Assembly: GCA_002791275.1 (NCBI GenBank)
Contig: PFWT01000025.1
Location: forward strand, 1 to 54,731
Direction: 5' to 3'
Length of the DNA stretch: 54,731 bases
DNA from: Candidatus Uhrbacteria bacterium CG_4_9_14_3_um_filter_41_35
Lineage (GTDB): Bacteria > Patescibacteriota > Patescibacteriia > UBA9934
The notes beneath the pieces were generated by a model. It had not been told where the DNA came from, ran no database searches, and worked only from the letters and a program-made list of their open reading frames with translations. The position numbers were made by a program, and so were the translations under genes. Of this stretch, positions 531 to 54,731 are shown piece after piece (within the stretch, counting starts at the first letter, position 1; every line of letters starts with the position of its first letter).

Positions 531-624
531 GATTCTTCAGTGCGAAAATTGTAAATGAATTAATGCCTTTCGTCAAATCTTTGAAATCTTGTTTATATAT
601 AACTCAGCTTGGATTATAGATAAA

Positions 625-728
625 TTTTATACACACCCTATTCGGTAGAATAAGGCCAAATTTGAATAAAATATTTCGCTAATATTAAACGAAAATATTA
701 TTTTATACACACCCTATTCGGTAGAATA
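625..728. repeat. 28-bp exact direct repeat TTTTATACACACCCTATTCGGTAGAATA (625-652 and 701-728)
   Basis: Read directly from the sequence. The second copy contains the stop codon and last codons of the ArsR-like gene and forms the palindrome ACACCCTATTC-GGTA-GAATAGGGTGT. A related third copy lies at 33807-33836. Confidence 0.85.
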
Positions 729-17850: not shown

Positions 17851-17926
17851 AGGGGAGTAGCTCAGTTGGTAGAGTAGTGGTCTCCAAAACCATTGGTCGC
17901 AGGTTCGAATCCTGTCTCCCCTGCCA
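17851..17926 (+). tRNA. tRNA-Trp (anticodon CCA), CCA encoded
   Basis: AGGGGAG TA GCTC AGTTGGTA GAGT A GTGGT CTCCAAA ACCAT TGGTC GCAGG TTCGAAT CCTGT CTCCCCT G CCA. Confidence 0.9.
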
Positions 17927-17930
17927 AAAA

Positions 17931-17955
17931 ACTTTCGCTTACGCGGAAGTTTTTT
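17931..17955 (+). terminator. intrinsic terminator after tRNA-Trp
   Basis: 8-bp stem ACTTTCGC-TTAC-GCGGAAGT followed by TTTTT. Confidence 0.7.
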
Positions 17956-17994: not shown

Positions 17995-18178
17995 TTACAA
18001 CATCTGACAAACTAAACAACGCACCAAACCGTCATTCTGAGCCAAACGTGAACCACGGCGAAGAATCTCATTATTGGATCACTGAGCAAATGTTGGTTTA
18101 GTAAAGGGCGAAGGAGATCCTTCAGCCAAATTCGACGCCCGCTTCAGGATGACGGTATGAATATGGGGTGAGGATACA
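17995..18178 (-). repeat. composite intergenic repeat, copy A (inverted relative to copies B and C)
   Basis: 18108-18155 is the exact reverse complement of 54438-54485 (48/48). 18029-18068 is one 47-bp-type subunit (CCGTCATTCTGAG..GTGAACCAC..GAAGAATCT). Confidence 0.85.
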
Positions 18179-18362
18179 CTGCTCCGTGAGACAAAACAGG
18201 GATAGGAGTGTGGAATATAAACATTTTGTGAGGTCTATTTCTCCGTCTTGGCGTCTTGTATATGCCCAAAAACGCCCAGTACCTGCGTGCCTGTGGCAAC
18301 GCTATTGTTACAAAGTAACGTATTTATCTTTCAAAACGATTGTGTTTATTATGACAGTAATC

Positions 18363-18395
18363 AAAAACCATCTTCCGAAGAAAATGGTTTTTATA
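18363..18395. terminator. AT-rich hairpin terminator downstream of the lipoprotein gene
   Basis: AAACCAT..ATGGTTT stem flanked by A and T runs. Confidence 0.45.
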
Positions 18396-18438: not shown

Positions 18439-18909
18439 TTATCGAAGCACACCAACCGCAGAAACCTCAGATGTACAAACTACAGTACCCGCTATATCAC
18501 AAATATAGGTTCCTTTATCCTCCCCGTACTTAACCCGCACAGCACAATCAGCTGCGCCATCTGTTAGCGGAACTTCATTGAAACTAACCTCATTATTCAT
18601 CATTGCAGAAGCTACACTCTCTCTGTAAGATCCGTCGCCAGACTCAACTACGAAATAGCCAAGGTTTGGGTCCTCAAAGTAAGAAATTACGTTTGGTGCG
18701 CCGTGCGAAAGACAGTCTCCAGATTCGTGAGTGTATCTGAATTCTTTGTATGTATCTTTTCGATCCAAAATGTTTCCTAGAACCTCACTAAATGGTACAT
18801 TTGCCATTTGTTTAACTGTGTCATTGACCGCAGTATCTGAAGCATCACCGCCAACACAACCACCACCAATTAAAGTAAGCGCAACTAAAAGTCCTAAAGT
18901 TTTTTTCAT
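18439..18909 (-). CDS. lipoprotein, function unknown
   Basis: Signal peptide with lipobox MKKTLGLLVALTLIGGGC. No other motif was recognised. Confidence 0.7.
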   Translation of the reverse strand: MKKTLGLLVALTLIGGGCVGGDASDTAVNDTVKQMANVPFSEVLGNILDRKDTYKEFRYTHESGDCLSHGAPNVISYFEDPNLGYFVVESGDGSYRESVASAMMNNEVSFNEVPLTDGAADCAVRVKYGEDKGTYICDIAGTVVCTSEVSAVGVLR

Positions 18910-33097: not shown

Positions 33098-33126
33098 TTG
33101 ACAAAGCTTTGAAAATATGATATATT
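33098..33126 (+). promoter_or_regulatory. near-consensus sigma-70 promoter of the orphan small-ORF unit
   Basis: TTGACA (33098-33103), 17-nt spacer, TATATT (33121-33126) with TGa just upstream. Confidence 0.6.
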
Positions 33127-33183
33127 ACTTGGTCGTTTAATGATGACTAAAACTGCTCTTAAAAAAGAGCTGGAGGTGAAAAC

Positions 33184-33291
33184 ATGAATATCAAAAAGCC
33201 GTTTTTTAATATTCAAAAACTCACAAAGTTCCTGACCGTCCACCACAGGGCGAATGGACATTCAATTATTTACACCAATCTGGAGGAATGA
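33184..33291 (+). CDS. putative 35-aa peptide (MNIKKPFFNIQKLTKFLTVHHRANGHSIIYTNLEE)
   Basis: GGAGG (33172-33176) lies 7 nt before the ATG. Hand translated. There is no homology evidence. Confidence 0.3.
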   Translation: MNIKKPFFNIQKLTKFLTVHHRANGHSIIYTNLEE

Positions 33292-33296
33292 GTTTT

Positions 33297-33395
33297 ATGT
33301 CTTTGACAATCTCGGAGGAGAGAGTTGGGACTCATGATATTCAAGTGCCTGGACTCGGCCTCGCTGACTCCATGCACACACCCGAATATCTCTGA
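33297..33395 (+). CDS. putative 32-aa peptide (MSLTISEERVGTHDIQVPGLGLADSMHTPEYL)
   Basis: GGAGG (33282-33286) lies 10 nt before the ATG. The SD sits inside a 14-bp long-range inverted repeat. There is no homology evidence. Confidence 0.3.
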   Translation: MSLTISEERVGTHDIQVPGLGLADSMHTPEYL

Positions 33396-33486
33396 AACAT
33401 ATCACTGCTTGCAGTGATCACTGGATCGCGTTGGGCTAAGCTTGACAGCTCGACCTCCAGATTGGTGAGAGTAATTATTATAGTTT

Positions 33487-33522
33487 AAAAAAACCGCCGG
33501 TATTATTACTTGGCGGTTTTTT
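33487..33522 (+). terminator. intrinsic terminator of the small-ORF unit
   Basis: A-run, stem AAACCGCC..GGCGGTTT, then T-run. Confidence 0.7.
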
Positions 33523-34135
33523 GTTATTACTGTTTTACCAAAGCGAACGACAATGTGGGTCGAAGGATCTCCTTCGCCCTGTGCTGAACCGACATTTGCT
33601 TGGTGATTCGGTAATGAGATTCTTCGGTGTGATTCACGTTCACCTCTGAATGACGGTTTGGTTAGATTCTTCGTCGTGGTTCACGCAGGCTCTGGCACCG
33701 CTCTCATCATAACGCCACATGACGCCTCGATCGGCTTCAAGTGGTAAATCAACAAGCAAGCAAACAGACACTCTGTTTTGCAACCTTAGACCCAGCTGGG
33801 GTCTTTTTTTATACACACCCTTTTCGGGCGAATAAGACATTATCCAAAACTACACCCTCTCTAACAACCTGGACCTATATTTACGGTGTACTGCAACATT
33901 TAGATTCTTTGCCATGGCTTACATCAGGCTCAGAATGACGGTTTAGTTAGATTCTTCGACGTGATTCACGCCAAGGTCTGAATGACGAAGCGATAAGATT
34001 CTTCGACGTAATTCACATCAATCTCAGAATGACGGTTTGGTTTATTTGGTGTAATTGTATTATTTTGACCCGCACCCATACCGTCATCCTGAAGCGAGCG
34101 CCAGGTTACGCTGAAGGATCTCCTGCGTTCTTTAT
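33522..34135 (+). repeat. composite intergenic repeat, copy B (about 2.3 tandem units, interrupted)
   Basis: 47-bp subunits start at 33617, 33664, 33902, 33949 and 33996. 34032-34058 is identical (27/27) to 54614-54640. 34051-34127 repeats the start of the copy C unit. Confidence 0.85.
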
Positions 34136-34139
34136 TGTA

Positions 34140-34895
34140 TCAAAACCCACTCAACCTCTTCACCTCTTGCCACGCTAACTCAAGTGTTGCTCGTGCGGTG
34201 TCTGCGATTGCTTTTGAGGTTATTTCAATAGCTATTATATTTTCCGCGTACGAAAATAAAACTAGTCTGTCACCAGCTACTGTCATTTCACCCGGGGTTA
34301 TAAACAAACTTGGTGAGATCTGAAGTATTTCAATATTTGATAAATTACCCGTCGTAACCTCTCTGTCGGTTACTAAAATCGAACGAACGTGCGTTTTAGT
34401 TTTTATAGATTCTTTACGATTTGATTTTTCACTGTCGCCAAGCAGTTTTAAAAAATTATCGTAGCCCACAATTTGTAAAATATCATCCCCTCTTTCTTCA
34501 AACTCACGGCGCATTAATTGCAGTCCATCAAGGGTTTCAATATACCTGATTTTTGGGGCCGAACTACCTGTTGACTTAATTGCTTGTAAACTAAGTTTTA
34601 AATCATCCGCAAGTTCAATTTTTTCTTTTAAAACATCGGCCTGAATTTTTAGAGCTGTCACCAACCTTTCTGGAGGCTCAGCTGTATAGTATCGCTCCTC
34701 ACCTTTTTGTATAAAAATAACTAAACCTTTTTGCTTTAAGGTTTCCAGCACATTATAAACTGTTGCTCGATTAATATTAGATTTTCGAGCAATTACAGTA
34801 ACGTTTGCTTTTCCGAGCTGTAAAAGCGCTAGGTAAACTGCCGATTCTTTTTCGGAAAACCCAAGCTGTTCTAATCTACTTATTAAACTCTTCAT
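34140..34895 (-). CDS. TrmB-family transcriptional regulator
   Basis: N-terminal LGFSEKESAVYLALLQLGKANVTVIARKSNINRATVYNVLETLKQKGLV winged-helix motif. Confidence 0.8.
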   Translation of the reverse strand: MKSLISRLEQLGFSEKESAVYLALLQLGKANVTVIARKSNINRATVYNVLETLKQKGLVIFIQKGEERYYTAEPPERLVTALKIQADVLKEKIELADDLKLSLQAIKSTGSSAPKIRYIETLDGLQLMRREFEERGDDILQIVGYDNFLKLLGDSEKSNRKESIKTKTHVRSILVTDREVTTGNLSNIEILQISPSLFITPGEMTVAGDRLVLFSYAENIIAIEITSKAIADTARATLELAWQEVKRLSGF

Positions 34896-54372: not shown

Positions 54373-54400
54373 ACGCCCCGTCTGCAAAGACGGGGCGTTT
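54373..54400 (+). terminator. intrinsic terminator
   Basis: 11-bp stem ACGCCCCGTCT-GCAA-AGACGGGGCGT followed by TT.TCTT. Confidence 0.7.
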
Positions 54401-54406
54401 ATCTTA

Positions 54407-54640
54407 TGTAATTGTATTATTTCGACCCGCACTCATTCCGTCATCCTGAAGCGGGCGTCGAATTTGGCTGAAGGATCTCCTTCGCTTTCGTGCTGAATCG
54501 AGACTTGTTTACGATGTAATTCAACACTGAGATTCTTCGGTGTGGTCCACGCTCACCTCAGAATGACAGGGTTTGTGATTTACTTCAAAATAATTCACGT
54601 CAGTCTTAAAATTACGGTTTGGTTTATTTGGTGTAATTGT
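54407..54640 (+). repeat. composite intergenic repeat, copy C (one 225-bp unit bounded by TGTAATTGT direct repeats)
   Basis: TGTAATTGT occurs at 54407-54415 and 54632-54640. The internal palindrome GAAGGATCTCCTTC and 47-bp subunits starting at 54530 and 54577 are present. It matches copies A and B as described. Confidence 0.85.
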
Positions 54641-54731
54641 GAGCTAATCGACATTTAAAGTTGGTTTTTGCCCCTGTCGTGTAGCCAAATACCAAGCAGC
54701 GAGGATGAGCTTTTTTTGAAGTGAGAATCCT

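Follow-up and report, generated by a model that had tools for sequence, protein, structure and literature searches.

Palindromic repeats of probable REP/BIME kind at intergenic loci of a Candidatus Uhrbacteria genome

Introduction

Three intergenic sites in a 54.7-kb stretch of Candidatus Uhrbacteria DNA (the window, by which we mean this whole stretch) carry the same palindromic mosaic repeat, which makes up about 1.5% of the contig. What kind of element is it, and how might it have spread? Candidate-phyla-radiation bacteria have very small, streamlined genomes. An earlier note on this DNA had left the choice between a mobile sequence of MITE or REP type, a protein-binding array and a structured RNA family. 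The repeat is of an ordinary bacterial kind, met here in a tiny-genome, Uhrbacteria-like member of the Patescibacteria. The three loci are probably intergenic mosaic elements of the REP/BIME kind, that is, non-autonomous palindromic repeat DNA spread as hairpin doublets and by tandem duplication.

Results

One hairpin family at three loci

Twelve units or fragments of a single hairpin family are confined to three loci (A, B and C) and absent elsewhere in the 54.7 kb, as determined by a covariance model with filters off and by pattern search. Covariance-model matches over the window ranged from E 1e-21 to 4e-3, the first one beyond the family having E 0.27; the eleven with E < 0.01 were all inside the three loci. 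The pattern GAGATYCTTC-N18-32-GRATGACGG was matched five times in the window (0.00 expected), and a looser version of it nine times (0.03 expected). A repeat search tied together 18023-18167 (inverted), 33528-34143 and 54397-54640 through repeat families D1-D5 and I1-I7. Repeat search, patterns and covariance model all bear out the earlier claim of one repeat at these three places, and the words then quoted from it (ATTATTTYGACCCGCAC, CCGTCATCCTGAAGCG, GAAGGATCTCCTTC, GTGCTGAA and the tail GGTTTGGTTTATTTGGTGTAATTGT) were all found. The loci consist of two subtypes of the hairpin unit, T1 and T2, with linkers and spacers, as follows (scores in bits are from the covariance model).

Locus A
17995-18028, no strand: degenerate form of the tail spacer, lying beyond the CGTC end of T1 (minus strand GGTTTGGT...); resembles in part the tail at 54616-54640 and 34036-34058
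18026-18071, plus: T1, on the given strand 5'-CCGTCATTCTGA..GAAGAATCTC-3'; 72 bits, E 5e-21, and pattern match
18072-18111, no strand: conserved linker joining T1 and T2, whose tails face each other; alignable with 17 other doublet linkers
18112-18158, minus: T2 (CCGTCATCCTGAAGC..GCTGAAGGATCTCC); 31.4 bits, E 8e-8, and pattern match
18160-18223, no strand: extra mosaic module adjoining the CGTC end of T2; 89% identity over 64 nt to L140:3849-3912
Locus B
33541-33575, plus: T2 without its 5' half, with the GAAGGATCTCCTTC palindrome at its end; repeat family D5, tail word present, no CGTC half-site
33576-33613, no strand: doublet linker (..CTGTGCTGAACCGACATTTGCTTGGTGATTCGGTAAT); homologous to the aligned linker block, inverted repeat I1
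33614-33659, minus: T1; 69 bits
33663-33694, minus: truncated T1, 47 bp past the preceding T1; 17 bits, E 0.004, matching just model positions 12-38, D1
33695-33898, no strand: about 210 bp interrupting the array, outside the family; only the D6 motif recurs elsewhere
33788-33812, plus: intrinsic terminator within the interrupting DNA
33806-33837: D6 hairpin repeat within the interrupting DNA
33899-34038, minus: three head-to-tail T1 (33899-33944, 33946-33991, 33993-34038); 55.1, 53.9 and 65.1 bits
34039-34077, no strand: spacer flanked by two CGTC ends that face each other, composed of the tail GGTTTATTTGGTGTAATTGT and the leader ATTATTTTGACCCGCACCCAT; D3, aligned with L140 and locus C
34078-34124, plus: lone T2; 35.1 bits and pattern match
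Locus C
54408-54434, no strand: leader GTAATTGTATTATTTCGACCCGCACTCAT; starts 9 nt past a terminator at 54373-54398
54435-54481, plus: T2; 30.8 bits and pattern match
54482-54526, no strand: doublet linker, from the linker alignment
54527-54572, minus: T1 with the tag variant TGTC; 62.6 bits
54573-54640, minus: degenerate second T1 (54573-54620) and tail ending in GTAATTGT; 19.3 bits, E 7e-4, D2

The module L140:3849-3912, the relative of the extra module of locus A, likewise adjoins a cluster on an Uhrbacteria contig.

Locus B had been read as about 2.3 tandem units. This was an over-reading, for it consists of a 5'-truncated doublet (33541-33694), some 210 bp of unrelated DNA, and a second part (33899-34124) made of three T1, a spacer and a lone T2, which ends 17 nt from the stop codon of a TrmB-like gene (34140-34895, minus strand). 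The exact 47-bp spacing of the subunits stands (starts 33902/33949/33996 and 33617/33664), and Tandem Repeats Finder (TRF) reported a period of 47 x 2.6 at 33921-34042. Not all of the proposed subunits are complete, however: the unit at 33664 is truncated (17 bits) and that at 54577 degenerate (19 bits).

The unit hairpin

All units follow one formula on one strand, CCGTC-AUYCU-GA-[variable stem-loop]-GA-AGRAU-CUC. The unit is an imperfect palindrome of about 41 nt (33-34 nt for the stem-loop alone, 41-42 nt including tag and tail). An unpaired CCGTC tag leads into the 5-bp stem ATYCT/AGRAT; then come a 2x2 internal loop, a variable upper stem-loop and an unpaired CTC tail. The internal loop gives tandem G.A mismatches on one strand only.

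T1 has the lower stem ATTCT/AGAAT and the loop GTGAAYCAC; its 5-bp stem leads through the 2x2 G.A/A.G loop to 3 bp and a 13-14-nt apical region with a further 3-bp helix. Over 30 distinct copies this structure was 95.2% paired and two pairs varied on both sides (CG/GC/AU and CG/UA/UG), values that no shuffle or slid register matched. GA/GA was retained in 25 of the 30 copies, and the pairs A9-U41 and U10-A40 were invariant in all of them. G6, T7 and C8 of the tag were likewise invariant, with C5 conserved in at least 90%.

T2, with the lower stem ATCCT/AGGAT, carries the CCGTC tag in 17 of 18 variants and shows little covariation in its upper stem. The tail reads CTC in T1 (at times CTA or CTT) and CTCC in T2. 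In T2 the T1 hairpin recurs in inverted orientation, and the T1 model gives the three T2 copies 31-35 bits. The opening module, which had been taken for a distinct part of the element, is therefore an inverted copy of the subunit hairpin. At several loci the T2 tail can pair as GAAGGA/TCCTTC, followed by a T-rich run.

Doublets, linkers and arrays

The basic element is a doublet of T2, a conserved linker of 46-50 nt and an inverted T1, with the CGTC ends pointing outward. Additional T1 copies run head-to-tail, one per 47 bp, a period made up of the 41-nt unit and a constant spacer of about 6 nt, and the doublets are themselves iterated in tandem. There are two kinds of conserved linker motif, the tail-side linker and the head-side spacer. 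Two REP subtypes that alternate in orientation with conserved linkers and are tandemly iterated constitute the arrangement by which a BIME is recognised.

The doublet is about 135 bp long, non-coding and multicopy, with imperfect terminal inverted repeats (CCGTCATYCTGA / TCAGRATGACGG). No target-site duplication was recognisable at the element boundaries; the octamer GTAATTGT at both ends of locus C is part of the repeat itself. As RNA, the locus C doublet can form one structure along its whole length on either strand (z -2.3, and -4.1 on the minus strand), whereas with DNA folding parameters separate hairpins are favoured over one long hairpin.

Further clusters, gene context and relatives

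Copies beyond the window, which the earlier note had left to a census, do exist. A metagenome scan yielded 19 further loci, equal to about 11 non-redundant clusters, on "Candidatus Uhrbacteria" metagenome contigs. Together with the window they amount to 63 strict units in 14 clusters, which share one T2-linker-T1 plan and conserved linkers, T2 being inverted relative to T1 in every cluster. To judge from shared samples and shared minor repeats, the extra clusters presumably belong to the same species as the window. Extrapolated from about one cluster per 20-30 kb, a genome would hold some 150-300 units. Units per cluster range from 2 to 9 between loci. Locus L140 holds 2.7 tandem copies of a 271-bp [T1 T1 T2] unit that are 98% identical, a sign of recent tandem duplication. 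The D6 hairpin, an M3 module and a 50-nt perfect palindrome accompany T1 and T2.

The units are extragenic. All 14 clusters lie between ORFs, either between convergent genes or downstream of genes, and the ORFs that overlap them (25-83 aa) are unsupported; gene callers put ORFs of 32-66 aa in the intergenic region of locus B, at least one of them overlapping the repeat. The genes near the window clusters are TrmB, holB, tRNA-Trp and a P-type ATPase, and the metagenome clusters are flanked by genes of ordinary housekeeping function, named 'Candidatus Uhrbacteria bacterium'. Most clusters sit just beyond intrinsic terminators, a terminator-like hairpin separating the neighbour gene from the cluster in at least 10 of the 14. 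Locus B follows directly after a stop codon with no intervening terminator and would therefore be transcribed there.

Locus B was recovered in six independent JGI, ENA and NCBI assemblies at 99.98-100% identity, either as the whole locus or up to a contig end within it, which rules out an assembly artefact for this locus. Contigs from other assemblies break off within T1 units, every contig carrying the neighbour gene of locus C stops at most about 140 nt from the repeat, and every assembly ends at most about 140 nt from the window ends. A multicopy repeat produces contig ends of this sort, and the repeats explain why each assembly of the Uhrbacteria organism breaks at these sites.

In a relative at 53% identity with the same TrmB...holB gene order, the gap holds other genes and zero units, and the element is therefore a lineage-specific addition. 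The sole contig carrying an 85%-identical relative of the TrmB gene beside locus B stops 8 nt past the TrmB stop codon, again as a multicopy repeat would produce. Among the six other copies of the window region, which are 99.98-100% identical and hence uninformative in this respect, neither an insertion polymorphism nor an empty site turned up.

The hairpin core in other phyla

The earlier note pointed to similar repeat words in other phyla, and rightly so. Among the matches listed, the same hairpin flanks occur in Acidobacteriota, Omnitrophota, Verrucomicrobiota, Bacteroidota, Planctomycetota, Patescibacteria, Proteobacteria and others. The figures that follow also refer to the matches listed. 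At the free positions, 86 of 120 cross-phylum matches have TGA, and among these 86 the two bases of the Y/R pair in the lower stem change together without exception (48 C-G, 38 U-A, 0 mismatches). Upper stems of at least 3 bp were found in 41% of these matches, compared with 5% of shuffled ones; they vary freely, with compensation. Neighbouring units were mostly inverted (53 inverted vs 8 direct pairs), with 43 pairs facing by their tails, 10 by their heads and 8 arranged head-to-tail. Furthermore, 44% of the matches lay within a long ORF, as against 90% of random positions. Some cross-phylum pattern matches are probably chance or coding sequence; a doubtful example is one Acidobacteriota word conserved together with its flanks in six genomes. 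The general pattern occurred at only 66 loci in viral contigs, with no sign of the motif being phage-borne.

Searches for a known identity

No Rfam family matches the repeat. Nothing was found over the units at gathering score across the whole window, at E <= 10 in locus B, at E <= 1 in 600 nt covering locus C and its right flank, or at gathering score in 18 unit-bearing loci from other phyla; the searches gave only tRNAs and terminator-driven noise.

A cognate transposase did not appear in the DNA searched either. Pfam searches of 40 flanking ORFs revealed no HUH/Y1-type transposase beside any cluster, and the only transposase was one of IS3-type DDE kind abutting a cluster. A phmmer search with E. 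coli RayT had no match at E <= 10 among 9,295 ORF segments (about 1.9 Mb), a search of low sensitivity that covered a fraction of the genome. IS30-like and IS3-like genes were seen, and their ends are unlike the repeat.

Several structural look-alikes were considered and rejected. A CRISPR array is contradicted by the constant spacer in the 47-bp period, the lack of unique spacers and the absence of cas genes nearby, and a type III antitoxin array by the lack of a toxin gene nearby. The attC reading was rejected, the hammerhead-like core has neither a three-way junction nor the CUGAUGA box, and a k-turn would have a bulge, which is missing here. Literature searches with the sequence words of the repeat returned primer and plasmid noise only, and we found no paper describing REP-type elements in candidate-phyla-radiation bacteria.

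Discussion

Origin and possible roles of the repeat

Short tagged extragenic palindromes, at many loci, alternating in orientation and joined by conserved linkers, make the repeat REP-like, and to this extent the first option of the earlier note holds. The mobile part of that option has neither a polymorphic or empty site nor, in the DNA searched, a transposase to show for it, and we infer mobility. A single-stranded hairpin might be recognised through its tag and stem mismatch, by analogy with REPs and their tyrosine (HUH) transposase, for which nuclease binding needs both the REP 5' tetranucleotide and the stem mismatch (PMC3479197). Recognised hairpins would then be copied into new intergenic sites, and arrays could grow locally via tandem duplication or unequal recombination. 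Copies may survive where they are least harmful, just past intrinsic terminators and in the gaps between convergent genes. At the DNA level, a secondary use by the host is conceivable, for example as a putative binding site for topology proteins, as with BIMEs.

Such a use could also be the primary reason for the repeat, though this seems unlikely to us. The clusters would then be arrays of cruciform-prone palindromes between convergent transcription units, where positive supercoils accumulate, and would act as putative sites of binding or cleavage for topology or nucleoid proteins. The model is that of BIMEs with gyrase and IHF; binding of several proteins to BIMEs is described (PMC2817692). 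The position of the clusters outside terminators and often between convergent genes would suit this role, as would the presence of both orientations in each element, the regular spacing of 46-50 nt and 47 bp, and the lack of strand bias relative to genes (18 sense and 12 antisense single units relative to the upstream gene in other phyla, among the matches listed). However, it has no known protein partner, the range of 2-9 units per locus together with truncated and degenerate units looks like drift rather than maintenance, and the element is missing from the syntenic locus of a relative. The role would in any case be compatible with a selfish origin.

It is rather improbable that the units act as RNA, that is, as hairpins of 3' UTRs or intergenic regions that would stabilise the upstream mRNA, reinforce termination or give rise to small RNAs by processing. 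Compensatory changes keep the stems, yet hairpins of single-stranded DNA would show equal stem covariation. Tandem G.A, a stable RNA motif, is present on a single strand. On that strand G-U pairs outnumber A-C pairs two to one, but this count (12 vs 6), like the folding energies of the two strands (82:49) and the orientation of units relative to genes (18:12), is too weak to fix the strand of action. The folding of the doublet into one long hairpin (z = -4.1, minus strand), the pairing T2 tail with its T-rich run and the position of locus B immediately after a stop codon would agree with an RNA role. Against it, most clusters lie past strong terminators, no convincing promoter linked to the clusters was seen, each element contains both orientations, sense and antisense units in other phyla show no strand bias, and neither the window nor the 18 loci of other phyla gave an Rfam match. 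The structured RNA family of the earlier note thus has little to recommend it.

A local duplication, an assembly artefact, a known RNA gene or a CRISPR or type III antitoxin array is practically dismissed: the window has just three loci, with short 47-bp tandem arrays superficially like repeat-RNA arrays, but independent assemblies carry the same sequence, about 11 more clusters occur next to different genes, and unique spacers, neighbouring cas or toxin genes and an Rfam match are all absent.

Returning to repeat DNA of the REP/BIME kind as the favoured reading, the finding sharpens the question of what recognises and spreads CGTC-type elements. CGTC-type REPs are not known to have a dedicated transposase. 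More speculatively, and with little likelihood, CCGUC-AUYCU-GA-[any stem-loop]-GA-AGRAU-CUC could be the cross-phylum recognition module of one widespread enzyme that processes single-stranded DNA or RNA, the missing mobiliser of CGTC-REPs. If this were true, this CPR genome of about 1 Mb, which would hold dozens of clusters and a small number of candidate nucleases, would offer the smallest search space for that enzyme.

Comparison with known repeat systems

Like MITEs, the doublet is a non-coding multicopy element of about 135 bp with imperfect terminal inverted repeats; unlike them, its ends fold on themselves as hairpins, and neither a recognisable target-site duplication nor a parent IS with matching ends was found.

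REPs typically occur in more than 100 copies per genome, and a RAYT is a single-copy HUH/Y1 transposase that is usually flanked by REPs. The REPIN-RAYT system shares with our repeat the inverted REP doublet that can fold into one long hairpin and the tetranucleotide tags at the outer 5' feet (Bertels & Rainey 2011, PMC3116915, PMC3337134). It differs in that the Uhrbacteria spacer is long and conserved, no RAYT was found in the DNA searched, and transposition of the Uhrbacteria repeat is putative.

The E. coli BIMEs, which are built of Y and Z REPs and bind IHF, gyrase or Pol I, have in common with the Uhrbacteria elements two alternating REP subtypes, two kinds of linker, tandem iteration of pairs and a position at gene 3' ends. 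Their tag is GTAG instead of CGTC, and the Uhrbacteria linkers are longer (46-50 nt) and accompanied by extra head-to-tail T1. Furthermore, E. coli BIMEs usually lie within the transcribed 3' UTR, whereas most Uhrbacteria clusters are beyond the terminator.

Of the kinds already described, the CGTC-tagged REP superfamily comes nearest, here in a BIME- or REPIN-like arrangement. According to the text and a supplementary peptide table of Di Nocera, De Gregorio & Rocco (2013, PMC3733652), on which the following comparisons rest, these REPs have an unpaired CGTC (sometimes TGTC or CCTC) tag, a stem starting with A-T, T-A and a short unpaired tail. They form mostly inverted dimers and are mostly intergenic, downstream of genes or between co-directional or convergent ones, in several phyla, and their units flank no transposase gene. 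The Uhrbacteria repeat shares these traits, its clusters lying downstream of genes or between convergent ones. Its 5' half CGTCATTCTGAG would correspond to the back-translated Sulfurovum CGTC-2 peptide RHSELVSGS (Additional file 3 of PMC3733652). In Neisseria, CGTC-1 (dRS3-type) hairpins are interleaved with other short repeat families in large intergenic regions (PMC3733652), a mixture also seen in Uhrbacteria, where the hairpin sequence and the phylum are different and no link to phage integration or an IS110-type recombinase was seen.

By the text description and the peptide table of PMC3733652, the Uhrbacteria hairpin does not fit the four described CGTC families in stem, loop or tail; a variant with the G.A loop could conceivably be among those described. 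Families 1-4 have a continuous 8-9-bp stem and a 4-5-nt loop, from both of which our unit departs, and a CCA tail in place of CTC/CTCC. Head-to-tail arrays are negligible in them, whereas the Uhrbacteria T1 forms such arrays with a 47-bp period. Patescibacteria are outside the five phyla listed there for CGTC REPs. A hairpin core that recurs across phyla, with a conserved foot, a free upper stem and no Rfam entry, widens the range of CGTC-REPs beyond these five.

Repeat family in the window

The repeat in the window is genuine and clearly defined, and belongs to an ordinary, REP/BIME-like kind. A repeat search of the whole window placed one family at 18023-18167 (inverted), 33528-34143 and 54397-54640, the three places named in the earlier note, and the sites can be delimited as follows.

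17995-18223, inverted: locus A
33541-34124: locus B
54408-54640: locus C

The pattern GAGATYCTTC-N18-32-GRATGACGG matched five times in the window against 0.00 expected, and a looser form nine times against 0.03. The half-site CGTCATYCTGA was restricted to the three loci, as were exact matches to the tail word GAAGRATCTC, whose one-mismatch matches elsewhere were at chance level. A covariance model built from 30 distinct copies of one hairpin subtype, T1, and run with filters off, gave 11 hits with E<0.01 in the window (six T1, three of the second subtype, T2, and two further T1, of which one is degenerate and the other truncated). Each lay inside the three loci, and the next-best hit had an E of 0.27. 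The 47-bp subunit spacing proposed earlier also holds, as the T1 direct repeats start 285, 47 and 47 bp apart, and TRF found a period of 47 bp × 2.6 at 33921-34042. Six independent assemblies (JGI, ENA, NCBI) were 99.98-100% identical to the window at the repeat, and three of them ended there, two inside T1 units and one in a 210-bp insert of locus B. Because independent assemblies agree and some end in units, the repeat is genuine, and multicopy enough to break assemblies.

At the left (L153:15208-15357) and right (L149:1-50) ends of the window, all assemblies stop within ~140 nt. The left break falls in the start of what we take, from an N-terminal motif (MQNSQYKRLSIEDREEIGLGIARGERQNIIAQSLNVSSSTISRELARNGG), to be an IS30-like transposase. 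The right break lies ~50-140 nt past locus C, in sequence without Rfam or tRNA match.

Structure of the hairpin unit

On the CGTC strand, each unit reads CCGTC (unpaired)-ATYCT-GA-upper stem-loop-GA-AGRAT-CTC. In T1 the lower stem is ATTCT/AGAAT and the apex GCC-(4 nt)-GTG-AAY-CAC-GGC, whereas T2 has ATCCT/AGGAT plus AGC...GCT. T2 copies score 31-35 bits under the T1 model; the “opening” module and the 47-bp subunits, previously described as different parts, are the same hairpin in opposite orientations.

The stems are kept by compensation. Among the 30 distinct T1 copies, 95.2% of cells are paired, and two upper-stem pairs vary on both sides (CG 18/GC 7/AU 2 and CG 18/UA 7/UG 3); neither shuffled alignments nor slid registers attained this pairing or covariation. 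Of the 30, 25 have GA/GA in the 2x2 loop. Tandem G.A is possible on one strand only, because the opposite strand would be TC/TC.

Organisation of doublets and arrays

The units form doublets within mosaics. A doublet consists of a leader (..CACYCATW), T2, a conserved 46-50-nt linker (CTTCG..TGCTGAAYCGA.A.TTG.TTA..GTAATYCA.CA.T) and an inverted T1, with the CGTC ends outward. Often, one or two extra T1 copies are appended head-to-tail at 47 bp, followed by a tail, GGTTTGGTTTATTTGGTGTAATTGT, directly next to the leader of the following doublet. Folded as RNA, the doublet of locus C gives a single long end-to-end hairpin (plus strand z -2.3, minus strand z -4.1). DNA folding parameters prefer separate hairpins.

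Locus B is not the regular array of ~2.3 tandem units that it had been taken for. It is composed of a 5′-truncated doublet, ~210 bp of DNA that is unrelated to the family and holds a plus-strand terminator of its own, then three T1 and, past a spacer, a single T2, whose end is 17 nt from the stop codon of the TrmB-like gene (34140-34895, minus strand). In another contig, L140, a 271-bp [T1 T1 T2] unit is repeated 2.7 times at 98% identity, therefore arrays grow by recent tandem duplication.

Further modules accompany the clusters. A 64-nt module at 18160-18223, 89% identical to L140:3849-3912 on an Uhrbacteria contig, adjoins a T1/T2 cluster in both and is a further mosaic component. A separate short hairpin repeat, D6 (TATACACACCCTWTTCGG.AGAATA.GG), lies at window 624-655, 700-731 and 33806-33837, L140:3947-3974 and L131:1137-1164, twice beside T1/T2 clusters and in tandem near a tRNA-Thr gene. 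It includes TAGAAT, a -10-like word, and at 706-731 one copy forms an 11-bp hairpin without mismatch (ACACCCTATTC-GGTA-GAATAGGGTGT). The 24-25-nt word GAGCTAATCGACATTTAAAGTTGG flanks the element at opposite ends, at window 54641-54664 after T1-tail-GTAATTGT and at L141:12807-12831 after T2-leader-ACAATTAC. When the junctions are combined, GTAATTGT is flanked by inverted arms of 12 nt, an arrangement reminiscent of a recombination core site that, with two instances only, may be a coincidence. A perfect palindrome of ~50 nt (CTAAGACTGAGTTGCAGATGCGACTTAGTCGCATCTGCAACTCAGTCTTAG; L127:9958-10002, L129:10553-10597, L141:12559-12603), absent from the window, lies ~50-170 nt from three T1/T2 clusters on Uhrbacteria contigs.

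Host lineage and copy number

The window, a complete NCBI contig of 54,731 bp, has the gene content typical of a small Patescibacteria genome, and its TrmB-like gene has homologues under the names Candidatus Uhrbacteria or Patescibacteria. Scanning metagenomes for a T1-specific word retrieved 19 loci in ~11 non-redundant clusters, none overlapping the window. Including the window, this amounts to 63 strict units in 14 clusters of 2-9 units. Seven of eight flanking proteins of the metagenome loci carry the name “Candidatus Uhrbacteria bacterium” and come from two or three MAGs, the metagenomes with extra loci also contain the window’s contig, and three other short repeat modules are common to both. 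From these names, shared metagenomes and shared minor repeats, we infer that the extra loci belong to the same or a very close species. Cluster density is ~1 per 20-30 kb in cluster-bearing contigs and window alike, so that we estimate dozens of clusters per roughly 1-Mb genome, an extrapolation from cluster-bearing contigs rather than a count.

Genomic placement

The clusters are extragenic, between convergent genes or downstream of a gene, and their neighbours are ordinary: tRNA-Trp, TrmB, holB, P-type ATPase, NrdR, RecR, MurG, MraY-type, PGI, a DsbA-like protein, uridine kinase and YecM. A strong intrinsic-terminator-like hairpin separates gene from cluster in at least 10 of the 14 clusters, for example:

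window 17929-17952: terminator-like hairpin, precedes locus A
window 54373-54398: terminator-like hairpin, precedes locus C
L138 cluster: convergent terminators on both sides

These clusters therefore lie outside the transcription unit; the TrmB side of locus B is an exception. The presence of the units is lineage-specific: where a relative (53% identity) shares the TrmB...holB order, the gap is filled by other genes and lacks units. The sole contig of an 85% relative ends 8 nt past the TrmB stop codon.

Downstream of the tRNA-Trp (17851-17955 region) lies a hairpin bordered on either side by A and T runs, and a similar bidirectional hairpin (18364-18395) follows the convergent gene at 18439-18909. 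Between them lie locus A and ~140 nt of further sequence (18224-18363). Next to locus B, at 33098-33525 (+), a near-consensus promoter (TTGACA-17-TATATT with TG, 11/12) is followed by ~390 nt up to a bidirectional terminator (33483-33520). The transcript fold has z = -8.2 (RNA). The region has two ORFs of 35 aa, each behind a good ribosome-binding site (33184-33291 and 33288-33395, +), and CACCAAUCUGGAGG (33276-33290) pairs long-range with CCUCCAGAUUGGUG (33455-33470), burying the Shine-Dalgarno of the second. The annotation has a 63-aa gene on the opposite strand instead. The region had no Rfam hit and no copy among the other loci examined, and could encode small proteins on a structurally controlled mRNA, or be a novel ncRNA.

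Hairpin core in other phyla

The hairpin core is unusually widespread, beyond the Uhrbacteria lineage. A flanks-only pattern, searched in one genome per GTDB species, gave at least 120 matches; the following figures are among the matches listed. These include Acidobacteriota, Thermoanaerobaculia, Omnitrophota, Verrucomicrobiota, Planctomycetota, Bacteroidota, Patescibacteria, alpha-, gamma- and delta-proteobacteria, Cloacimonadota and others. The positions left free by the pattern are TGA in 86/120, and all of those 86 keep the lower-stem Y/R position paired, 48 as C-G and 38 as U-A, without a mismatch. Upper stems are unrelated in sequence yet pair (≥3 bp in 41% vs 5% shuffled), many as perfect 6-9-bp hairpins. 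Neighbouring units are mostly inverted and have their tails facing (43; heads facing 10, head-to-tail 8). Units avoid long ORFs (44% inside vs 90% for random positions), and single units were not biased in orientation with respect to the gene upstream (18 vs 12). No Rfam model covered the units in 18 loci from other phyla, and only 66 loci in 2.9 million viral contigs fit a broader pattern.

In six Acidobacteriota genomes (L015, L036, L055, L062, L089, L096), GGGCAAGAAGGAGATCCTTCGTCGC.GAAGGCGCTCCTCTGGATGACGGCCAA is kept with its flanks, without the TGA/GA core. This is probably coding sequence fitting the pattern by chance, therefore not all cross-phylum hits are repeat units.

Possible mobility and roles

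We infer that the units would spread to new sites via a single-stranded hairpin intermediate. No HUH/Y1 gene was found beside any cluster, no RayT match was obtained with a single, low-sensitivity query in ~1.9 Mb of DNA covering a minor part of the genome, and no empty site was found in the six near-identical assemblies. The only transposases seen were the IS30-like start at the left contig break and an IS3-type, neither with ends related to T1/T2. The IS3-family element (orfA plus rve integrase-core orfB; L133:5336-6624, L135:320-1608) directly adjoins a T2 that has foreign sequence in place of its linker, which suggests that the IS inserted into the cluster. Some IS elements are known to target REPs.

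Nothing observed conflicts with a host role at the DNA level of the sort proposed for BIMEs. An RNA role is disfavoured, as cluster position, dual orientation and lack of strand bias count against it.

Relation to known repeat systems

The organisation recalls known systems. As in BIMEs, the two subtypes alternate, with conserved linkers and tandem iteration, and as in REPINs, an inverted doublet folds as one hairpin. REP/BIME-like elements have, to our knowledge, no earlier description in this phylum, and T1/T2 form a new family there.

CGTC-tagged REPs, as described by Di Nocera et al. (2013, PMC3733652), have a CGTC (or TGTC/CCTC) tag, stems of 8-9 bp starting A-T, loops of 4-5 nt and a CCA tail. 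They occur in five phyla, usually as inverted dimers, in intergenic regions whose bordering genes are co-directional or convergent, and flank no transposase gene. T1/T2 share the tag, A-T start, dimer habit and location, but differ from families 1-4, as described there, in stem/loop geometry and tail. We therefore place them as a new family in the CGTC-REP superfamily, outside families 1-4. In GTAG REPs, both the 5′ tetranucleotide and a stem mismatch are required for binding by the HUH nuclease TnpA-REP (PMC3479197). An enzyme that works on single-stranded hairpins may, by analogy, recognise these units through their invariant CGTC tag and conserved G.A/A.G loop.
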